From the NCBI GenBank assembly GCA_964016885.1, contig OZ024742.1:137144001-137208000 (forward strand): a stretch of DNA of 64,000 nt, in the 5' to 3' direction. Source of the stretch: Eledone cirrhosa (taxonomy: Eukaryota). The notes below the pieces were generated by a model. That model saw only the letters and a list, made by a program, of their open reading frames with translations, searched no databases and was not told where the DNA came from. Position numbers and translations under genes: made by a program. This document shows, piece after piece, positions 6,430 through 60,982 of this stretch; the stretch's first letter is position 1; each line of letters opens with the position of its first letter.

Positions 6430-6615
6430 GGTGGATTGGCAGTATCGGTAGCGGGTCTAACGCCATGCTTTGCAGCAATGAGTTACGAACCTTTATGGTC
6501 TGAGTTCAAATCCCGCAGAAGTTAACTTCTCCTTTCATCATTACAGGGTCGATAAAATAAAGTAACAGTAATACACTAAGATAATTGCTGGCCTTGTACC
6601 AAATGTAGAAAAAAA

Positions 6616-6622
<7 letters not shown>
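6430..6622 (+). mobile_element. tRNA-derived SINE S1
   Basis: A-box-like TGGCAGTATCGG, B-box GAGTTCAAATCCC, central domain ctttcatc...gggtcgataaaataaagtaacagt (resembles the Meta/MESC SINE domain, from memory), ATT tail. Confidence 0.85.
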
Positions 6623-6653
<31 letters not shown>

Positions 6654-6657
<4 letters not shown>

Positions 6658-6753
6658 GTTTCTATCTACATTTGGGACAAGGCCAGCAATTATCTCAGTG
6701 TATTACTGGTACTTTATTTTATCGACCCTGTAAGCATGAAAGAGAAAGTTAAC
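6654..6753 (-). mobile_element. Inverted partial SINE S1, fold-back partner of 6521-6619
   Basis: Near-identical reverse complement of 6521-6619. Confidence 0.85.
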
Positions 6754-6756
6754 ACT

Positions 6757-6800
<44 letters not shown>

Positions 6801-6808
<8 letters not shown>

Positions 6809-6930
6809 TAACAGATTAAAGTTTAAGCAAAAAATCGCTGCTTTTACCCTTAGCGGGATCTTCTGAAATGAATATTTGCTCCAGGGTCCCTATATATTTG
6901 ATATATATTTATTCTTATCGAGCCCTCTCT
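6801..6930. mobile_element. Rearranged copy of the 161-nt hammerhead-like unit (family H1): segment A inverted, then segment B forward
   Basis: Matches 26107-26274 and 53782-54017. Confidence 0.75.
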
Positions 6931-6939
6931 GGGCTGTAC

Positions 6940-7078
6940 GGATATAGCTGTCGAAACGGCTGGAGCTCAACCGTCGGGTTCCTGATTATTTTCCTATTAC
7001 TCACTCTACTACCCTACGTATTGAATACTTTGGTTCGTTATGGTCCACCTGGTATCTTACCAAACCCTCTTTGTTATG
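6940..7078 (+). mobile_element. Short non-coding repeat family H2 (half-hammerhead; PLE pLTR/retrozyme-like)
   Basis: Homologous to 54150-54288 and to the reverse complement of 53341-53470. Confidence 0.7.
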
Positions 7079-7762: not shown

Positions 7763-8351
7763 GGTGTGTATGTATATATATATAACATGCCTATGAAGAA
7801 TGACTCAACTTCATACATAACTATGCCAATGTATGTTTTTTATGCATATGTGAATATACACTCACATTCATCAGAGATAAACCTATAGGCAAAGAACTAG
7901 TCCTATGGGAATCAGTTGAATGAATGCAGCGAAACGAAAGCAATTCCTTAAAGAAGGTGGGTAATCCCACATGTAAAGCACGAGTATTATTATGATTGGA
8001 TGTTTTACTTTGATGAGGGGCATCTATATCCTACGACAGTGTGTTGTTCATTGTTTGCTTTGAGCTCAAAATAATGAGAAAGTTCTAGAAATAGACTTAG
8101 AATTATCTGGCTTCAACAGTAGTAACGTTTGGAATAAATAACGGGAGTGTAGGCAAAAATTGATCTATTTGAAGATTTTAATTACACACTCAGACGAGTA
8201 CTCGTAAAGCTAAATTAGCATGTATGTATGTATGTATGTATATTTATTCATTTACATCTCTCTCTGTCGCTCACTCTCTCTATATATATGCATATATATA
8301 GAGAGAGACAGCAACAGAGAGTGAGCGACAGGAAGAGATGTAAATGAATAA

Positions 8352-8452
<101 letters not shown>

Positions 8453-8960: not shown

Positions 8961-9174
8961 GGGCGAGGTTTTGGCTGTATCGGTAGAGCGTCAGACACCA
9001 TGCTTTGCAACATAGAGTTATGGCCCTTTGCGTTCTGAGTTCAAATTCCGCCGTGGTTAACTTTGGCTTTCATCCTTACGGGGTCGATAAAATAAAGCAC
9101 CAGTAACGTACTGAGGTCGATTTAATCGACTTTCCCTTCTCCCCAAATTACTAGTCTTGGGCCTATACTAGAAA
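8961..9174 (+). mobile_element. Full-length SINE S1 with an 18-bp target-site duplication
   Basis: A/B boxes; TSD tcattataggttgg(g/a)tca at 8943-8960 and 9175-9192. Confidence 0.9.
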
Positions 9175-9732
9175 TCATTATAGGTTGGATCAATTGTCAC
9201 ACGCAGGAGATGCACTACCACAACAAAAATACTAGCTATCAAATTTTCCTGGGTTTTGTTGCAGCGTAGTTAATCCTAAAGGATATAGAAAAAGAATTAG
9301 CACCAAGACATGAACTCATCAAGAAAGATACATCTGTATTGATAATAAAGTTACGTTAGCTTCAATGCAGATAACTCTAAATAAAAGTCCATATTTTATG
9401 TCTCCATGGTTATTTTACTTGATTATTCAGCTATAATTCATAATTATCTCTATTGAAACTGACATAATTTCAAATTTCAAATTTCGCCAATGCTTCGTAA
9501 ATTAACCAAAAAGAAATGTTATTTATACTTTAAGCTTCTAAAGGTAGGGAAATGTGGGACAGATCCGCTTAAATGTAATTATTAGACACTCGTCCAACAT
9601 AAGTGAGATGGGTGGTTCGGTTCCTGCAGATGTCTCTCTCTCCTTTTCTCTATCTCCCGGGTACTCTACTCGACTTATTCAACCACTATTTATAATTATC
9701 AACTTTTATTTATCATATATCCTTGTGTTAAA

Positions 9733-11472: not shown

Positions 11473-11533
11473 TATTTTATCTGATGAGTGCGTACCAAAA
11501 TGTTGGTACCCTTGAAATATATATAATAAAATA
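11473..11533 (+). ncRNA. Minimal type I hammerhead ribozyme (PLE-type)
   Basis: tattttat-CTGATGA-gtgcgtaccaaaatgttggtaccctt-GAAA-tatata-TA-ataaaata: 8-bp stem I, hairpin stem II, palindromic TATATA stem III. Confidence 0.75.
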
Positions 11534-11574
11534 AATATGGTTTTATAAATATAGTTTCCATTCATTAATATCAT

Positions 11575-11683
<109 letters not shown>

Positions 11684-11724
11684 TTCAAAATATTAACAAA
11701 AATAGAACTTCTTGTGATCAAGTA

Positions 11725-11791
11725 TATTTTATTATATATATTACAGAGGTACTGAGCTAACTTCAACAGTACGTCCTCATTAGATAAAATA
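11725..11791 (-). ncRNA. Degenerate hammerhead motif at the inferred 3' end of the PLE
   Basis: Minus strand reads tattttat-CTAATGA-ggacgtactg...cagtacctct-GTAA-tatata-TA-ataaaata. Stems I and III are identical to 11473-11533; two core mutations. Confidence 0.6.
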
Positions 11792-13778: not shown

Positions 13779-14630
13779 TTAGGTACACAGTTCATAAGAG
13801 ACGTCAAAAATTAGAACCTGTTTATTTAGTGTTTTTTTCCTGACTTTTTGCGAGGCTTGGAATGTAGACAAAGCTTTATGAAGGCAGTTTGAGAATAATT
13901 CACTTTTTTTGTTAATTATATTTTCATAATTAGTAATTATTAATAGGGTCTCCATGGTACAGAGATTGCAGTTAGGTGATATTGAAGAATTCAAGTAAAT
14001 TCTACTATTACACAACTTCGTCCAAGAAATCGACTATTTTAAATTTTTGTCTTTTAATGACCATATAAGTTGTGATAAAAAGTCGAAGATTTTCTATTAG
14101 GATTCGAAAAAGAGCATTTGTGATTCGCAAATCTTGATTTAAATGTCGAAGAAGTTGCACCCATATAGTTGTATGTGATGTTATTTGCTTTTACGGTGCA
14201 TTTATAGACCAGATTGCTATCCAGACAATTAATTTGCAAAGGGCAATCTGGTCTATTTCTACAATTACATTTCGATTTATTGTTATTACTATAAATTGTA
14301 CTATTTACATTCACATTATTAGTACTCCGAAATGTTCTATTGATTGTGCTTATATTCCTAATATTGGTAGTGTTATTATATTCATTATCGTTAAATGTAT
14401 GTTGATTATGATTTAGAATTCTACTATTTATTTTAGCGATGTTCTGGGCCATATTCATAGTTGTAGAATAAGAAAGCTTAATTGTGTGTCTGTTAAATAT
14501 GGGACGGTATTTATGTTGAATGGGGAAGGATTTATCTAAAGCTTTAAAGAATAGATTTGCGAGTGGTGTTTTTATTGCTACAGAAGCCGGGGGGGGGGGG
14601 AACCATATAACTGATTTAGTTCTGATTTTT
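13779..14630 (-). pseudogene. PLE linker and GIY-YIG endonuclease, frameshifted
   Basis: VIWFPPP...IFNRHTIKLSYS, CNCRNRPDCPL...C, VYKCTV...YMGATSSTFKSRFANH, CNLCTME...INKKSELFSNCLH. Confidence 0.88.
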
Positions 14631-14744
14631 TCCCCGATTTATTCATGGTACTGGTGTTTGTATTATAATTTTTAGAATCTCGTATATGTATGTTAGTCTT
14701 ATTTTTAGCAGGATTATAATTCAAATTATTATTATCTATATATT

Positions 14745-15812
14745 CTATATTATTTTTATTTTTCGTAGCGCGTCATTATAATATCCTGCTTTTTCATAAA
14801 ATATGGATTTATTAGCGGATATTCTAGTTATGCGTTTCTGTACACTATTGACTATTGCGTTTTTCACTGATTTAGGGTGATTACAGTAATAGCTAACGTA
14901 GTTTAAGTTTTCATTGGGCTTATGAAAAGGGCAATATAAACCCGAGTTTAAGTTAAGGGTAACGTCAAAGAAATTAACTATTTTGGTACTACTTTCAACT
15001 TCTAATTTAAGGTCGTAATTTTTAAAGAATACAATAATAGTTTTCTTAACCCTATTTAGTTTTGTATTGCTATGTTTGATAACCGTAAATAAAATATCGC
15101 CCCTATATAAACCACCGGTAATCTCCGGTGGTTTTCTATTTATCATATTTAAGATAAAAATCCCCAGAAGATCTGTGACCTGCGCTGAGTCCGATGATCC
15201 CATGGTAATGTCAAAGTTTCTATTCCTATCTGAACGGGTCCAATACGCATTGTTGAAATTAATTAGAGTTCTTCTAGCAGTTAATATGATATAGATTTCA
15301 TCCGTAGTTAGATCTGTATGTTTGTAAGTATACGATAAAGCCTTATTTAATAGGTTAGGTGTAATAGAAGAATAATAGCTTGCTATGTCCATTTGGATGA
15401 ATTTGTGATTTTTCTTATAATCTACATTTTTAAACCAGTTAATCACTTCATTAGTGTCCTTCCATAAGCTCAATTTAGACTTCAATTTCAGAGTAGGTAG
15501 AATTCTATCAATAATATTTTTACTGATTACTCCAATATCCGATTTAGATGGAGCAATCAGTCTAACTGGCAGGCCTTCCTCAAAGTTTCTTTTGTGATCC
15601 TTAAAATTTATCCTCGGCTGTCTAGGTATAAAAGGCTCAGTTCTTCCTTCAATTCCAAATGTTGCTATTAATTTAAGTGCATCATTATTGATGTCTGTAA
15701 GATCTTCGGCCGAGGCTTTTCTATAATTTTTCCTTAGTTCTTTTAAAATCAAATCATTATATTCATCTTTATCTATCCCATATAAATTGTTGGTTTTGTC
15801 AGACTTCACCAA
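14745..15812 (-). pseudogene. PLE reverse transcriptase (resembles the Hydra clade of C-terminal-EN PLEs)
   Basis: KSDKTNN, FKDHKRNF, VRLIAPSKS, FIQMDIASYYSSI, FDITMGSSDSAQVTDLLG, GLYRGD (catalytic YRDD mutated), VNFFDVTLNL, SYYCNHP. Confidence 0.88.
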
Positions 15813-16394
15813 TATTTTTTATATACAAGATTTTTTCTTTAAGAGTTCTAATGTATTGGTGACCTATATATGGGTTTTTCCTGAAATTAATTTTCTTTAG
15901 TATATTGAGTATTCTGTTTCAAATTTCATATTACTATATATATATAGTAATAATAATAAATGTATACATAATAAATATATATATATATATTTGAAAAGAA
16001 GGAAAAGAATGACTTCACTTGTAGTTCTAAACAATTTGATTTAATTTTATAATATTATAATATTTTGAGTTGGTAGATCTAGTAGTTCCGCATCGAGGGT
16101 CCCCACATTTCTTAACGTGCATTGCTTCACTTATTAGACGTAAATACTGATTGGTAAGCATTTTTTTAGGTTGGGTGCATGGCGTCTACTATATATTATT
16201 TGTGCGTCTTTTATGAGCGCATTCATTTTAGGGGACTGCTGGAGAATCGGAAGATATTGTTTAGCGGCTTTCACAATGTTAAAGTTCCTTGGATTGTGAG
16301 TGATGACAATGTATGTATGTATATATATATCTAAGTGTGTTTGTGTTTCTATGCGTATTGTGTGTGCGTATCTGTTTCTGTTTGTTTATGATGT

Positions 16395-17460: not shown

Positions 17461-17557
17461 ATCTTAATAAATGTAAGATAAACAGAAAATGAATACACAC
17501 ATTCTTGTTAGTATGTATACATACGTGTATATCACGTATATATCCTACACTTATTAA

Positions 17558-17752
17558 TTATAATTGTTTCTATTTTTGGCACAAGGCCAGCAATTAACCA
17601 GTACATTACTGGTACTTTATTTTATCGACCCCGTAAGGTTGAAAGGCAAAGTTAACCTCGACTGGATTTGAACTCAGATCACAAAGGGAGGTAACTCTAT
17701 GCTTCAAAGCATGGCGTCTGACCCCCCTACCGATACTGCCAATCGACATCCC
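17558..17752 (-). mobile_element. SINE S1
   Basis: Reverse complement of the S1 pattern, including the B box (ggatttgaactc) and head (cgatactgcca). Confidence 0.88.
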
Positions 17753-25950: not shown

Positions 25951-26106
25951 TTTGGATTTTAGTCTTCAAATTTATTATTATTACTATATGTATATATATA
26001 CATTTTATTAAAATAACATATATGATATGACTAGCAGATATTCACAGAAGCCTATAGTTGTTTTGCTTTCTTCTAAAAAACGGATCATTTTCCGGCTGGG
26101 TATGAT

Positions 26107-26266
26107 TAAATATTTGCTCTACGATTCTTGTATATTTGATATATATTTATCCTTATCGAGCCCTCTTTGGATTTTAGTCTTCAAATTTATTATTATTACA
26201 GTTTCAGAATATCCCGTTAAGGGTGAAAGCAGCGATTCTTTGTTTAAACTTTAATCTGTTATTTTA

Positions 26267-26274
<8 letters not shown>
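26107..26274 (+). mobile_element. Complete 161-nt monomer of family H1 (order B-A), terminally redundant, followed by (TA)n
   Basis: Begins and ends with TAAATAT (26107-26113 and 26268-26274). Hammerhead-like fold at 26200-26250. Confidence 0.75.
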
Positions 26275-26887: not shown

Positions 26888-28200
26888 CATATATGATATG
26901 ACTAGCAGATATTCACAGAAGCCTATAGTTGTTTTGATTTCTTCTAAAAAACGGATCATTTTCCGGCTGGGTATGATTGAATATCATTTTCTTTATGACT
27001 TTCGCGACGACTGAAGAGATACCTAATCACGTCTAATTTCCTGTGTCACCAAGGTCGCTTGATTAAGGGAGAGGAATCGTCATTTTCTCAGGTTTCTAGC
27101 TGTCAATGATTAGTTTATTTGATTCACATCTTTTTGTTACATCTGCTTGTATATCGGCAGGACCAGCAATCGGCTTTTCTATCGCATAGACATTTCTTTG
27201 TTTTTAAAACTTCTGGCTTTATGAAAAGGTCATCGCTGATTCCCAAGTAATTCTAAATAGGCATGTGGTCCTTTTCTTCATCTTCATCAGGGACTTCTGA
27301 TCTCTTCACTAGTAATCGTTGAAGTATGCATACCAATGATTTTAGCATACTTTCTACAGGAAATTTCGTCTATAAAACTCCAGCATTGGCTATGTCTGTA
27401 TTTTGAGACAGGCTCATCTACTCTCTGATCTATTTGTTTAAGTTCTTTTTGTAATGTAGTTTAGAATTATGTTAGCTTCTCCTTATCTACTTGACGTTTG
27501 CTTCGATGTTCTGAGGTACGAATTGTCTGGTATGAGGATTAAGCATAATGAACGTTTTCTAGCTGCACCAATATGTTCACCATTAGCTGTCTATCTTTCT
27601 TATTCTTTAGGATAAGCATTATAGCAGTCTTGTTATTAGCTTTCACGAACTACTCATAATTTTCTGAATCATATTCCTCTAGAACTGACAATTTCTTTTA
27701 TATCTGTTGGACACCATGTAGAATTCTGTTCTGCAGATCTGAGAACACCAGTCATATTTGATTTCCCTTGGTTGATTTCTACCATGTATAGTATTTATTC
27801 GATATTAGTTGTTAGTATTCGATGGTTAGTTCTAAAACTATTAAGGTAATTATATGTCTTCACATCCAAAATAAAATGTATCCACTTCTATTTGATTAGA
27901 ATGTAGTCAAATTGAAATTTACTCCCATTCATATCCGAATGAGTTTTCTTCTCTTTAAATTACTGGTGAATACGTTGCATTCCTGTGCATGTATGTCCAC
28001 ATTTATTAGTGATTTCATGATATGCGTCTTTTGTAAGTTGTGCGTTAAAGTCTCCAAAATTTTCTACAGTACACGGTGGTTGATGATGTTATGCACGACA
28101 GTACAAAATCATTCGTAATGTTCTTCAGCTTCATCTCAGGAGCATCGTTGACAATTGTTGAGGTTAGTAGATTCTTACTAACTTCTATTTAGGGAATATT
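26888..28200 (-). mobile_element. Degraded LINE (RTE-like) endonuclease-linker fragment
   Basis: Fragmentary APE-like translation (NHRILTTNI, LILIK) with many stops. Confidence 0.45.
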
Positions 28201-39725: not shown

Positions 39726-41402
39726 CATGTTATACATATGTGCATGTGTATATGTATATATAGTAAAATATGACCAAAGTTCAGATAAATGCACTGTGGC
39801 CAATAAACAACTTTCTGTCAACAAGAGAGTCGTTAAAGGCCAGTATAAAACGAAGACATCACCATTATTATCATCTTGTAAACCAGCCACAGCAACAAAA
39901 TAACAAGAACAGCATATAAAATACAGCAGTCACAACAGAATCTCCATTTCCTTCGCACGCTAAGCTGAACTTTGTTTTGTAGTCATAGCAGTGATACTTC
40001 ATTCTTCGTGGTTGCTACTGCCACAGCTACTGCTGCTGCTGTTGTTGTAAATGATTGTATATATATATGTGTGTGGGCGCGACAAAACAACAACCATCGT
40101 TGTAGTTTTCGTAGTCATACTGAGTGTAGTGCTGTTGGGGGTGAAACAGATAGAGCTATATATGCTATAGCTTTAAATAGATCATTTATTACTCACAACT
40201 TTAAATGAAGGAGACGGCCATCTTTTTTTCCACTTTCCACTTTTTATTTATTTATCTTTTATTTTCTCTCGTTACCTTAATATTTGTTTGTTTTGTTTTC
40301 ATTGGTTTTCTTTTTTCGGTTATTTCATTATTACTTTTCGTTTTCACCTCTAATTTATTATGCTATTGCACTACCGTGACTAAACTTCATTGCCTTTCTT
40401 TAAAGAGACAATTTATATACGTTTAGAAAGCAACTGTTATTCCTTGGAGAGATGCTGGCCAAGTGTATATAATCATGCATTAGTCTACCTACGAAACGAA
40501 ATTATATTGATTTCTGTTTTAACTAGTAATAAAGACTTCACTACCAGTTTGCTTAAGAACGAAATACGAAGCTGTGATATTTATACTTTTTCGGAGAGTA
40601 TTTGCTGCTTCAGTGTAGAAGTGGGTTTCAATTGAATATTGAAATTGCATCAAGGTTTCAGCATGTCAGGAATGTAATTCTTGATGTATAGCATTTGCAA
40701 CGTGAAAACAGAATTATAGAGAAATTGTATTTTTAAATCGTCAGGTCAGGTTTCTGCCTGCTACTGGTACCATGTGACGTAGTGCAACCTGCTTCATGGT
40801 CGAGTGGTCGGTGACTAAACTGACCCCCCTCACCAACCCGTAATTGGCCAAGCGCGGTGAGTCCGAATACACCCTTAATATGAACAAAACCAAACAGAAA
40901 GCAGTGGAGCTCAACCAGGGAGGGGTTCTCCGACTAGAGTGAAAAGGCTCTGGGTTGGAGTGGATGCTTAAAGTAATAGCAGACGGATGTGAATGGAGAT
41001 AGCATTTACATATTATTGTAATTATTCGTTTCGTTGCTAGTGAATGTATGCGGAAGACTTTTACACAACACACATGGATCTCTATGAGCCTATCTCCACT
41101 TAAATATTTAGCATTGTTGTACCTGGCTTTAAGTATTCATATAATGGTCAAGTTTCTATTAACATTATGTTAAAATCATTGCATATTTAAGATATTCACG
41201 ATGGCATATTACAACGTGTTTAGACGTGAGTCATAGTTAATAAATAAACTATAATAGATTAACTAATTTCTTTTAATGTATTAACATCAGAGAAAGACTT
41301 ATTAGATCGGTCATGATATATGAATTGAAAGCAAAATTTGTTTTCGCTTTTAACTTGGTGGCTACCTAAATATATTCGTGAGTGAATTATCATAATATTA
41401 TA

Positions 41403-41565
41403 ATAATTGTTTCTACATTTGGCACAACGCCAGCAATTATCCCAGTACATTACTGGTGCTTTATTTTATCGACCCCGTAAGGATGAATAGCAAAGTTAAC
41501 CTAGGCGGGATTTTAACCGTAAAGGGCCGTAACTCTATGATGTAAAACAAGGCATCCGACCCTAA
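41403..41565 (-). mobile_element. SINE S1, left arm of a fold-back
   Basis: Reverse complement of S1. Confidence 0.8.
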
Positions 41566-41796
41566 TATCATTAATATGCCCTTTGTTTACAATTAAACAG
41601 CTTCAGAAAAAAACACGTGGTAAATGACGGCAGACTTACGCAAGACATAGGAATCTCTATGTGCCTATCTCCACTTGAAAAATTTAGCATGGGTGTACCG
41701 GGCTTTAAGTATTCATATCATGACGTCGTCATCTAACACGTGGTGTTTTATGAGGCTGTTTACTTGTAAACACACCGAATATTAATAATATTATGA

Positions 41797-41958
41797 TATT
41801 CGGACGCCATGCTGTGCAGCATAGAGTTGGGGCCCTTTGCAGTCTTAGTTCAAATCCCGCCGTGCTTATCTTTGCCTTTCATTATTACGGGGTCGATAAA
41901 ATAAAGTACCAGTAATGCACTGTTATATTTGCCGGCCTTGTGCCAAAACTATTGTTAT
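41797..41958 (+). mobile_element. SINE S1, right arm of a fold-back
   Basis: B box agttcaaatcccgcc and central domain. Confidence 0.8.
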
Positions 41959-51304: not shown

Positions 51305-52507
51305 TATAACGGTTTACATATACATAAACTAGACAGAGCCATAGATATATATATGTGTTATTCACGGTGTGGCTCAATGACGATTTAATTAATCAAATAA
51401 TCAACAATCAGAGCAATATATAAGAAAGTAAGTCCATAGAATCATTTGTTAAAATATATACAGTATTTCTCCTCAAAATCAGCATAATTAACCAACCAAA
51501 AAATCAATTAAACGAGTCTATATGTTTAAAATGTACCTATGAAGAAACCATAGGTAAATAAAAGATAGCTATTTTATCCGCGATCCACAGCCACAGTTTT
51601 TCTAATAGCCCGTAGATATTGATTAGGCATATAGCCAACCATACACAATTAGGTACAAAATCAAATTTAGAAGAAAAAATGTTGGTATGTTTTGGTATGT
51701 TTATGTACATTTTTTCTTCTAACTTTGATTTTGTACCTAATTGTATTTTTTACCAATTTCTACGGGCTATTAGAAATATATTTTATCAAATGATTCTATG
51801 GACTTACTTTCTTATATATTGCTCTGATTGTTAATTATTTGATTAATTAATTAGTCATTGCCAATAACACATATATATATCTATGGCTCTGACTAGTTTA
51901 TGTATATATATAAACCTATATATTTTTTATATACACCCGTATATATATTTTTTATATACACCCGTATGGTTGAGTACCAATTTAGGCAGTATTCGGCCGC
52001 GCTTTCTTGCAACCTGCCTACTCGCCGTCAGGCACCAATCACAAGCTTTCTGACTTGACCACTAGCCATGTGACAATTCTTAGCCATTTTGAATTCGTTT
52101 CTGGCGGGGATCATTTCAGAACAATCTTTGTCCAACTGAGTTTGTTTCCTGATGATTTCGAAACTCATGAATTTATCCATGATCGGGTATTTCCAAAAAG
52201 CGAATGAAACTTCATGGGGTAGAAACATAATTTTGGTATGTTTATGTACATTTTTTCTTCTAACTTTGATTTTGTACATAATTGTGAATGATTGGCTATA
52301 TGTCTAATCATTTTCTATGAGAAATACTGGGTAAATCTTCTGTGGCTGTTGATCGCGGATAAAATAGCTATCATTTATTTATTTACTGTTTCTTCATAGG
52401 TACATTTTAAACTTATAACCTCGTTTAATTGATTTTGTGTCTGGTCAATTATGCTGATTGGGGGGAGAAATACTGCATATATTTTATCAAATGATTCTAT
52501 GGACTTA

Positions 52508-52564
<57 letters not shown>

Positions 52565-53275
52565 TAAAACATGTCTTTAGAATCACTAGATATAATATAT
52601 ACCATTTCCTCTCCCAATTATCATAATTAACCATATAAAAAATCAATTAGACCAAGCTATAAGAATAAAGGCTCCTATGAAGAAATCTTCGACAAATAAC
52701 CGAAAGCAGCCCCTTCGCGGTGGCTACAATAGATTATTTATCTAATATTTCGACAGCATGTAAAAATCGACCAGATATACAGTCAACTAAACACAATTAC
52801 GTGTAAAATTGAACTTAGAAGAATTGCGTACATATCAAATTACCTCTACCATGGTTTCCTCTGTATTTTAACACATCCTATAACAAGGTATATCCGGAGC
52901 TTCGGAATCATCAGGAGCGAGCTCAAATTAAGACATTTAATTTTCCAAAGTGATCGCGCCAAAAATACATTCAAAAATGGCTAAGAATCGTGACGTGGCA
53001 GTGGTCAAGTTAGAAAGGATGTGACTAGTTGCTTACGGCAGGTAGGCTTATTGCAAGAAAGCGCAGCCTAATATCGCCAAATTGTATCTCAACCTAACGG
53101 AAGATTATTACATATAAATATTTAAATACATATATATAAAGTCATAGATATATAGGTGTTTTGCAATCGGTCACTTTGTGGCTCAATGAGAAATTAATAA
53201 ATTAAATAAAATAAAATAATCAGAGCTATATATCATAAAATATGTCTTTAGAATCACAAGATATATAATATAAAT
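51305..53275. mobile_element. Cluster of non-coding family E copies (~671-nt unit) in (TA)n: forward, fold-back, reverse, and a diverged terminally redundant copy
   Basis: 51305-51685 (+), 51690-51920 (-), 51960-52510 (-), 52561-53272 (+; the first ~38 nt recur at 53232). Confidence 0.75.
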
Positions 53276-53276
53276 A

Positions 53277-53340
<64 letters not shown>

Positions 53341-53343
<3 letters not shown>

Positions 53344-53531
53344 CGAACGAGGTGTGGTAAGGAACCAGATGGACCATAACGTACCAGAGCACTTAGGGTA
53401 GTAGAGTGGGTAATAGGAAAATAAAATGTATGACCCCGACGGCAGAGCTCAAGCCGTTTCGACCGCTATTTCTAATCCAGAAATACCCGTCGAAACAACT
53501 TGACCTCTACCGTCGGGGTCATACATTTTCC

Positions 53532-53781: not shown

Positions 53782-54017
53782 ATATTTATTAAAATAAATG
53801 ATTAAAGTGTAAGCAAAGAATCGCTGCTTTCACCCTTAACGGGATCTTCTGAAACTGATTTTCAGAAGATCCCGTTAAGGGTGAAAGCACCGATTCTTTG
53901 CTTAATCTTTAATCTGTTATTTTAATAAATATTTGCTCTACGGTTCTTATCCATTTGATTATATTTATCCTTATCTAGCCCTATTTGGATGTTAATCTTC
54001 AAATGTATTATTATTAC
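53782..54017. mobile_element. Family H1: inverted segment A plus a full monomer in order A-B; palindrome with ~73-bp arms
   Basis: Arms 53782-53854 and 53860-53932, loop CTGAT; monomer 53860-54017. Confidence 0.8.
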
Positions 54018-54104: not shown

Positions 54105-54288
54105 TAGGAAAATGTTCAAGACCCCGTTTCGATGGCTATTTCTGGACTCAGAAATAGCCGTCGAAACGGCTCGAGCTCTGCCTTCGGGGTCTTGAACATT
54201 TTCCTATTAGCCACTCTACTACCCTAAGTATTGAGTACTCTGGTGCGTTATGGTCCACCTAGTTCCTTACCACACTTCCTACGTTATA
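54105..54288 (+). mobile_element. Family H2 copy starting with a palindrome
   Basis: Palindrome 54105-54206; homologous to 6940-7078. Confidence 0.75.
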
Positions 54289-59424: not shown

Positions 59425-60594
59425 ATTTATATATATATATGTGTGTATATGTAAATATACATATATATATATATGGGGGGGGGGGGATATGTGGTGTGTG
59501 TGTGTATGAATGTATGTATGTATATATTTTGTGAGTGTGAGGGTAAAGAAAGTGTTAGATATCGAAACAAAATGCTTTTTCCCCCACCTCAACCTCTAAA
59601 ATGTAATAATGTAATATAAAGAACAATAAAAATAATAAAAAAATAAAAAATTATATAAAATAACAAGAAGACAAAAAATGAGACGAAACTAAAGTAAGCA
59701 AAGTAGCAAATAAACGAATGATTGTACCAATAGAGGATACTTCTGTATTGATTTCTCAATAGTTCGTTACTGATACGAGTATTTGCTGATCTTCGCTTAT
59801 TCTGTTGTATTTTGTCTCTTATATTTGTTGGGGAATATTCAGCAAGACAATCAATCGTTAATAAACTGGCCTTGAACAAACATTGATATATTATACGCAT
59901 ACACTTCATTCACACTGCAAGCTGACCTCGTCTTTGCTAAGACGTGATCTTGCACAAATAGTTAGAAGATTTTTAATCCAAGATGGCAAGCAGCAGCAAA
60001 TTTGGTTGGTTTGTTGGATGGTTGGCTGCTTGACTGGTCGTATTTGAATCAATCTACTGACACCCGTTGTTGCAAATATTAATATACCAGCAGCAGCAAC
60101 CATAGCAGCAACAACTACTACAACATCATCAACAGGAGCGTTACCACGTCTATATAATCATCACGAACGGAACCACTACCAGCAAAACCAACAAAACGAA
60201 CGCCACCACCACCTACATTATTAACATCACTAGCATCATTATCACATATCATGACTAATATGATCACTATCATCACTATTACCACTGCCCTTACTATCAA
60301 TATAGCCATCCAACCGTCCATTACCAATGCGACCCTGTATATCAACCCCACTAATCTTCAAAGGTTATAGCCACCCATCATAGCAAAATAAGTTTCTCTA
60401 TTACAACCACCACTACCAAAACCATCACTAACAAGAGACGTGGTTTGTGTTGTCTAAATAATAGTAGTGTTGGTGGTTTCTGTGTTTTGAATACAATTGT
60501 TTGATGCGAGTAGATATTATCTTACGTTGATGGTGACCATCAACAGTAAAACCAATACCGACGAGCGAGTATTTATGTAGTCGTTCGACTTCCT

Positions 60595-60783
60595 AATAAT
60601 TGTTTCTACTTTTGGCACAAGGCCAGCGATTATCCCAGTGTATTACTGGTACTTTATTTTATCAACCCCGTCAGGTTCAAGGGCAAAACTAACCTCGACG
60701 GGATTTGAACTCTGATCTTAAAGGGCCGTAACTCCATGCTGCAAAGCATGGTGTCTGACGCACTTTCGATACTGCCAATCCAC
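60595..60783 (-). mobile_element. SINE S1
   Basis: Reverse complement of S1 with B box gggatttgaactc. Confidence 0.88.
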
Positions 60784-60789
60784 AATAAT

Positions 60790-60982
60790 GTTGCCCGATT
60801 TGGGCACAAGACCAACGATTTTGAGGTAGAGGAATGTCGATTAAATCAACCCCAGTGCGTTATTGGTACTTTATTTTATCGACACCGGAAGAATAAAAGG
60901 AAACGCTAAGCTGTTTTGAACCCTGAATAAATGGGCCATAACTATATGCCATGAAGCTCTACTGATACTGCCAATCTACCGC
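60790..60982 (-). mobile_element. SINE S1, diverged, tandem with the previous copy
   Basis: ggtactttattttatcgac and head gatactgccaatctacc. Confidence 0.75.

Follow-up and report, generated by a model that had tools for sequence, protein, structure and literature searches.

The 64-kb stretch of DNA analysed here (the window) carries several copies of two short segments, A and B, which match one another in BLAST comparisons within the window at E values of 1e-12 to 1e-30 and all of which lie within or adjoin (TA)n (Table 1). Positions are numbered so that the last base of segment B is -1 and the start of segment A is -161. The Penelope-like element (PLE) family to which A and B belong is termed F1, and F2 and F3 are sister PLE families in the same genome. 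The initial annotation had read the two segments as a 161-nt unit present in two circular permutations, and the individual copies it described were borne out by the sequence: B precedes A at 26107-26274, with TAAATAT at both ends and a period of 161; A precedes B at 53860-54017, next to an inverted A arm; the rearranged copy placed at 6801-6930 is present as an inverted A followed by a partial B; and the B fragment at 25951-25984 is the last 34 nt of B. The period is simply the length of A plus B, numbered back from the B end. Both orders of the segments do exist in the window; as a property of the family, the permutation does not hold, with the exact B-to-A order found once genome-wide. The CAG that the inverted arm was thought to keep from the B-to-A junction turned out to be one C before the normal AGTTT start of A, at the fold-back joint at 53857 and with no preceding B.

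Table 1. Copies of segments A and B, neighbouring features and elements of the hammerhead motif in the window
Feature	Position	Strand	Description
5'-truncated copy	25951..25984	+	B alone; ends at the fixed -1 end
Inverted stub of A end	26004..26021	-	Faces (TA)n; weak match, 17/18 bases, E 0.03
97-bp copy of 26888-26984	26017..26113	+	98% identity; B joined via T(G/A)AATAT microhomology
Segment B	26107..26199	+	F1 -93..-1: TAAATAT plus the 86-nt tail after the pLTR end
Segment A	26200..26274	+	F1 -161..-87: pLTR end, from the 5'-end hotspot up to the shorter of the fixed 3' ends, in (TA)n
Type I hammerhead-like motif	26200..26250	+	Stem I 26200-04/26246-50, core 26205-11
Core substitutions of this motif	26206, 26210	+	A4 at 26206, G8>U at 26210
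U.U pair, stem II and GAA	26212-26227	+	U.U 26212/26224; stem II 26213-15/26221-23; GAA 26225-27
Stem III and predicted cut	26228-26245	+	Stem III 26228-31/26241-44; predicted cut after 26245
Inverted arm of fold-back insertion	53782..53857	-	F1 -161..-87
Direct arm	53860..54017	+	F1 -159..-1; A then B, into (TA)n, the normal F1 order
Inverted arm	6796..6868	-	F1 -159..-87, with G12>A
Partial B	6871..6932	+	F1 -91..-30; an F2 piece follows at 6941
F2 ends (second Hydra-type PLE family)	54151-54275, 53336-53529, 6941-7065		U3-A8 hammerhead with long stem II

Exact junctions were counted in the 3.0-Gb genome. The A-to-B junction occurs 10,743 times and the exact B-to-A junction once, in the window itself; an A stem follows within 30 nt of a B end at nine sites genome-wide, each with its own junction. 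Nearly all of 40 scored F1 candidates have A before B and share the same end base ahead of (TA)n. Copy anatomy was examined in 90 of 100 listed A-to-B matches. A spread of copy phases and the presence of multimers had been proposed as signs of a circular template; instead, 3' ends fell at -5..-1 in 84 of the 90 copies, and a second direct copy followed none of them (0/90). Five copies ran on into a leader, and 36 had an inverted partner, which ended at -89..-87 in 31 cases. The 5' ends were variable with a single peak (19/90 at -166..-151, 2.3 expected; P ~1e-11), and about a fifth of the sampled copies were a bare ~161-nt A-B unit. Within (TA)n, F1 insertions thus have their 3' ends at -1 or -87 and have lost 5' sequence, and they are often fold-backs whose two arms differ in end type. 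Published PLE insertions show this anatomy as well, with 5' truncation, an inverted arm and a tail on one side (PMC8557442), except that the F1 tail is 86 nt long rather than the 30-40 nt given there for Hydra-clade PLEs. Along F1, summed contig depth in the terminal region is ~25-40 times that at the ORF start, and runs X1 and X4, from the genome's organism, behave like DNA when aligned with the element. Two alignment columns differ in frequency between short and long copies (p ~0.007-0.008), with both states in both classes; no private diagnostic variant of the short copies was found relative to the long ones. Five loci (L100, L101, L103, L104 and L108, at ~1350-1690) have the order A-B-(TA)n-A, with two hammerhead motifs ~175-180 nt apart. 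Each has its own junction, a retrozyme-like layout and no sign of amplification; no third unit was seen at any of the five, and L002 is similar.

The copies are one end of a much longer element. Upstream of A, more than 1.5 kb is common to the copies and reaches GIY-YIG coding sequence. Downstream of B, in copies that carry the leader, an ATG follows after 44 nt in 29 of 30 loci and after 32 nt in the other, and the RT frame comes next; exact B-to-leader junctions number 363 genome-wide. The F1 unit, ~3.25 kb in all (the published norm is <3 kb), consists of the pLTR through A, B, the 44-nt leader, an ORF encoding RT, linker and GIY-YIG, a ~1.1-kb UTR ending in A, and the B tail. Near full-length copies lie at loci L139-L146. 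At L139, pLTR-B-leader precedes a 641-aa open RT frame, which is interrupted close to its end; ~1.1 kb of UTR comes next and then another A, which runs into (TA)n. The A/B repeats are clipped right-hand ends of F1, ordinary PLE debris.

The single F1 ORF combines RT motifs with a C-terminal GIY..YIG-like core. It carries RWR at 37, DKT at 115 and CxCX5C at 564, and its C terminus has CxxC and CxH (CDLC..E, CKH), with one Cys between the two Tyr motifs; motif inspection found neither a CX2-5CxxC linker nor CCHH. Scoring of 8,000 candidates yielded 567 relatives, and among the best 120 of these 567, at 38-57% identity, each Hydra motif is present in 110-112. One relative, P0095, has a GIY-YIG match (E 1e-5), and ESM look-alike clusters carry RVT_1 or GIY-YIG. 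Pfam and PDB searches with the ORF gave no match, and a search of metagenome loci found no relative. A remnant ORF on the minus strand of the window (14081-15815) belongs to another PLE family and is 38-42% identical to the F1 protein.

The marks given for the Hydra clade in PMC8557442 are RWK, DKT, CxCX5C, the absence of CCHH, and CxxC and CxH flanking E and N; its members, among them an octopus family, insert into (TA)n (PMC8557442). On these motifs, F1 is placed as a Hydra-type PLE. With the EN+ PLEs of this clade, such as Hydra-1_Obim and Penelope-5_HM, it shares an RT followed by GIY-YIG in a single ORF, the RWK-type motif, DKT, CxCX5C and lack of CCHH, insertion into (TA)n, 5' truncation, a pLTR, an inverted arm and a tail, as well as a 3' type I hammerhead whose stem II often has U.U at its base (Craig et al. 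2021, PMC8557442). Neptune and Naiad PLEs also show a (TA)n bias, fold-back insertions and a Cys-rich linker, but F1 differs from them in having DKT instead of DKG/DKA and no CX2-5CxxC or CCHH, and its endonuclease is C-terminal, unlike that of Naiad. An assignment of F1 to Neptune was dropped for the missing CX2-5CxxC and CCHH and for DKT in place of DKG.

The type I hammerhead that the initial annotation had drawn by eye in A is supported as a structure by a motif descriptor, by sister family F3 and by a published Hydra-clade table; the complete fold is present in no window copy. G8>U is present in the copy at 26200 and G12>A in that at 6868, the 53857 arm has a mismatch in stem I, and the copy at 53860 is truncated within stem I. 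Left to fold freely, these four copies gave z scores of -0.44 to +0.81 and none adopted a hammerhead fold, and an Rfam scan had no hammerhead family among the matches listed (150 of 204). The non-canonical core, CA at positions 3-4 in all four window A copies, proved to be family-wide: A4 is present in 79 of 80 F1 copies, including L208, which is 82-87% diverged, and a hammerhead 32-mer with positions 4 and 7 left free has at least 17,706 exact matches genome-wide, with A4 in 100/100 of those listed. Across F1, stems I-III and the whole of the remaining core are conserved. The family has the three stems round a core that characterize type I, and compared with CUGANGA / GAAA / NUH it departs at position 4 (A) and conforms at the other core bases. 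The literature searched contained no natural U4A hammerhead, although A4 forms may be listed in Lunse et al. 2016, on PLE hammerhead variants.

A descriptor with position 4 left free gave 158 matches in ~0.8 Mb of partly overlapping loci, compared with 0.8 per shuffle. U4 is present in 39 of 40 descriptor matches outside F1, which represent about ten families and are not independent, and the canonical-core motifs in these other families lie mostly ahead of (TA)n. Stem sequences differ between families yet pair in every one, a pairing imposed by the descriptor, and F1 copies are too alike for within-family covariation to be informative. The F3 hammerhead is laid out as in F1, with U.U and with stems II and III of 3 and 4 bp. 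The published table of Hydra-clade hammerheads was made with a canonical descriptor; in it, CUGA stands in 26/26 rows and U.U in 14/26, and these 14 rows share the U.U and short stem II of F1; F1 has A4 and a G-C pair at 15.2-16.2, as opposed to CUGA and A-C at 15.1-15.2 in all 26 rows (PMC8557442). Canonical hammerhead motifs are described in the same source as universal in the Hydra clade. By its layout, the F1 hammerhead is the clade's usual one with a fixed U4-to-A change. Two other readings were rejected. For splicing that would restore CUGA, there was no conserved upstream CTG/GT with a matching stem I (loci up to the 10th) and no spliced genomic copy (one donor), and an F1 fold with a long stem II via upstream TTGAAA has a non-conforming position 9 and was never chosen by the descriptor. 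About seven further families with canonical-U4 hammerheads, most of them followed by (TA)n, were seen at L050, L096, L135, L188, L016, L236, L301 and L033; these are likely ends of other PLE families.

The 5'-end hotspot at -161 suggests the start of the F1 RNA, and hotspots in both sister families are matched by TATA- or Inr-like motifs. In F1 itself the TATA-like motif is weak: TATTTA at -34, seen in two of the four copies shown. F3, whose ORF is ~51% identical to that of F1 and whose canonical hammerhead motif has at least 20,104 exact matches, has 34 of 70 5' ends at -135..-122, and TATAAA lies 24-30 nt upstream of this peak in 4/4 copies shown; some starts outside the peak reflect subfamily divergence from the reference. 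The F3 loci L219-L248, L309-L338 and L341-L380 (e.g. L232:1495-1550) show a variable loop 2 and very frequent fold-backs. F2, with an ORF 29-62% identical to F1 over fragments, has 26 of 29 5' ends at -141..-134 in a sample of top-scoring rather than random matches, and the peak lies 29 nt after a TATA-like motif in two of the three copies shown. Since the F2 peak falls inside hammerhead loop II, its position is not set by a ribozyme boundary; with the predicted start inside the ribozyme, RNA made from this promoter would lack half of it, so that only read-through RNA could cleave. PLE promoters are located in the pLTR (PMC6765202; PMC2377424), and the hotspots predict transcription starts for all three families. 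We infer that the peak marks where the RNA begins, at the initiator-like TTAGTY/CCAGATT.

Taken together, A and B are best explained as the terminal 161 nt of a high-copy Hydra-type PLE, comprising the pLTR end with its hammerhead motif and the 86-nt tail, which was probably inserted into (TA)n by its own RT/endonuclease, with the single B-A arrangement likely produced by a template jump (probability roughly 0.9). Target-primed reverse transcription would start at either end (-1 or -87), primed by short stretches of AU microhomology to nicked (TA)n, and many cDNAs would extend as far as -161, the 5' end of the RNA and probably the point where pLTR transcription starts. cDNAs that stop at this end would account for the 161-nt "unit". 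The transcription start, the priming and the template jumps are steps that we infer from the anatomy of the genomic copies.

The A4 hammerhead is predicted, with reasonable confidence, to be weak or inactive. In one type III hammerhead subjected to deep mutagenesis, all single changes in CUGA gave low activity (PMC9901934), and PLE hammerheads are weak in vitro (PMC4209133). In folding calculations, a rival helix that sequesters GAAA has a probability of 0.36 with A4 and 0.02 in a natural U4 copy, and stem I has a probability of ~0.05 with either base at position 4, as against ~0.58 in F3. Genomic starts at -113..-110 were seen in 3 of 90 F1 copies (~1.4 expected), and the canonical F3 likewise has no pile-up at the cut site, so that this footprint does not tell active motifs from inactive ones. 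That the A4 motif is a natural core variant able to cleave, perhaps in dimeric form or aided by the protein of the element, is a less likely reading, for which the stems and other core bases kept across F1, even in the diverged L208, would speak, together with two variants known elsewhere, natural U4C, with which viroids remain infectious, and U10.1.U11.1, which is active (PMC3088659); the mutagenesis result, the GAAA-burying helix and the poor stem I argue against it, and conservation among copies after insertion reflects young age, not selection. Another possibility is that the CAG is kept as the 3' splice site of a pLTR intron whose splicing removes the 5' half of the ribozyme. F1 and F2 share the position of TTAGT(Y)1-2CAG, both families have a donor-like CATAG/GTA ~100 nt past the stop codon (L139:4830 and L202:890 regions), and the end of the intron in Penelope of D. 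virilis coincides with helix I (PMC4209133). However, genomic copies with this donor joined to either acceptor gave 0 matches, F1 copies stop at -161 with no upstream exon, and TTAGT(Y)1-2CAG is equally readable as an initiator; we regard the splicing explanation as improbable. F3 (U4) and F1 (A4) are related, similar in abundance and near-identical in ribozyme layout, so that comparing them would be a natural test of whether PLE spread depends on cleavage.

The initial annotation had favoured a non-LTR retrozyme, a 161-nt unit copied from circular or multimeric RNA. Retrozymes are tandem arrays of 150-450 bp with hammerheads in two or more consecutive units, and yield circles (PMC7229834; 10.64898/2026.07.22.740005). 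F1 resembles the metazoan non-LTR retrozymes (Cervera & de la Pena 2020; Li et al. 2026) in being represented by a short hammerhead-bearing repeat, and a pLTR origin of retrozymes has been argued in the Li et al. preprint; the window junction joins -1 and -161 exactly, head to tail, as a short-RNA circle would, and the bare units and the five A-B-(TA)n-A loci with two hammerheads also fit. It differs in its lack of tandem arrays, its fixed 3' ends and non-canonical core, and in being no stand-alone non-coding unit, with PLE UTR and the autonomous ORF adjoining on both sides. A circle made by the ribozyme would, moreover, join at the cut site, -116/-115, and not at -1/-161, the window locus has a single hammerhead with G8>U, the two-ribozyme loci each have their own junction, and the short copies have no variant of their own. 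Because the copies extend upstream into the PLE ORF, have fixed 3' ends, include no tandems and yield a single permuted junction against 10,743 in the usual order, the retrozyme reading is refuted by the very finding that had been named as decisive against it, that the copies are one end of a longer PLE, and we consider it extremely improbable. Also very unlikely is that the A4 hammerhead is active and has been fixed in more than 17,000 copies, and that the two-ribozyme loci release small circles; if so, these loci would be retrozymes at birth from the ends of Hydra-type Penelope elements.

The B-A arrangement in the window is best read as a template jump within one complex insertion. At 26200, a cDNA primed at -87 would have been copied to -161, would then have jumped to the -1 end of another RNA and would next have passed onto neighbouring DNA. 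The 97-bp stretch found at 26017-26113 and 26888-26984 has only these two matches in the genome and is otherwise single-copy DNA, and its copy beside B marks a complex insertion or local duplication; alternatively, a transduced segment flanked by a long duplication of the target could account for the repeat. The joint between the 97-bp copy and B is spanned by a contig of run X3, and the B-to-A joint itself is spanned by no run contig among the matches listed. Self-comparison of the window revealed other long inverted repeats or palindromes at 51941-53121, 11506-11752 and 8221-8374. An abundant SINE-like repeat, presumably akin to octopus tRNA-derived SINEs, forms fold-backs around (TA)n at 6431-6753, 8971-9181, 17552-17748, 41396-41951 and 60594-60949.
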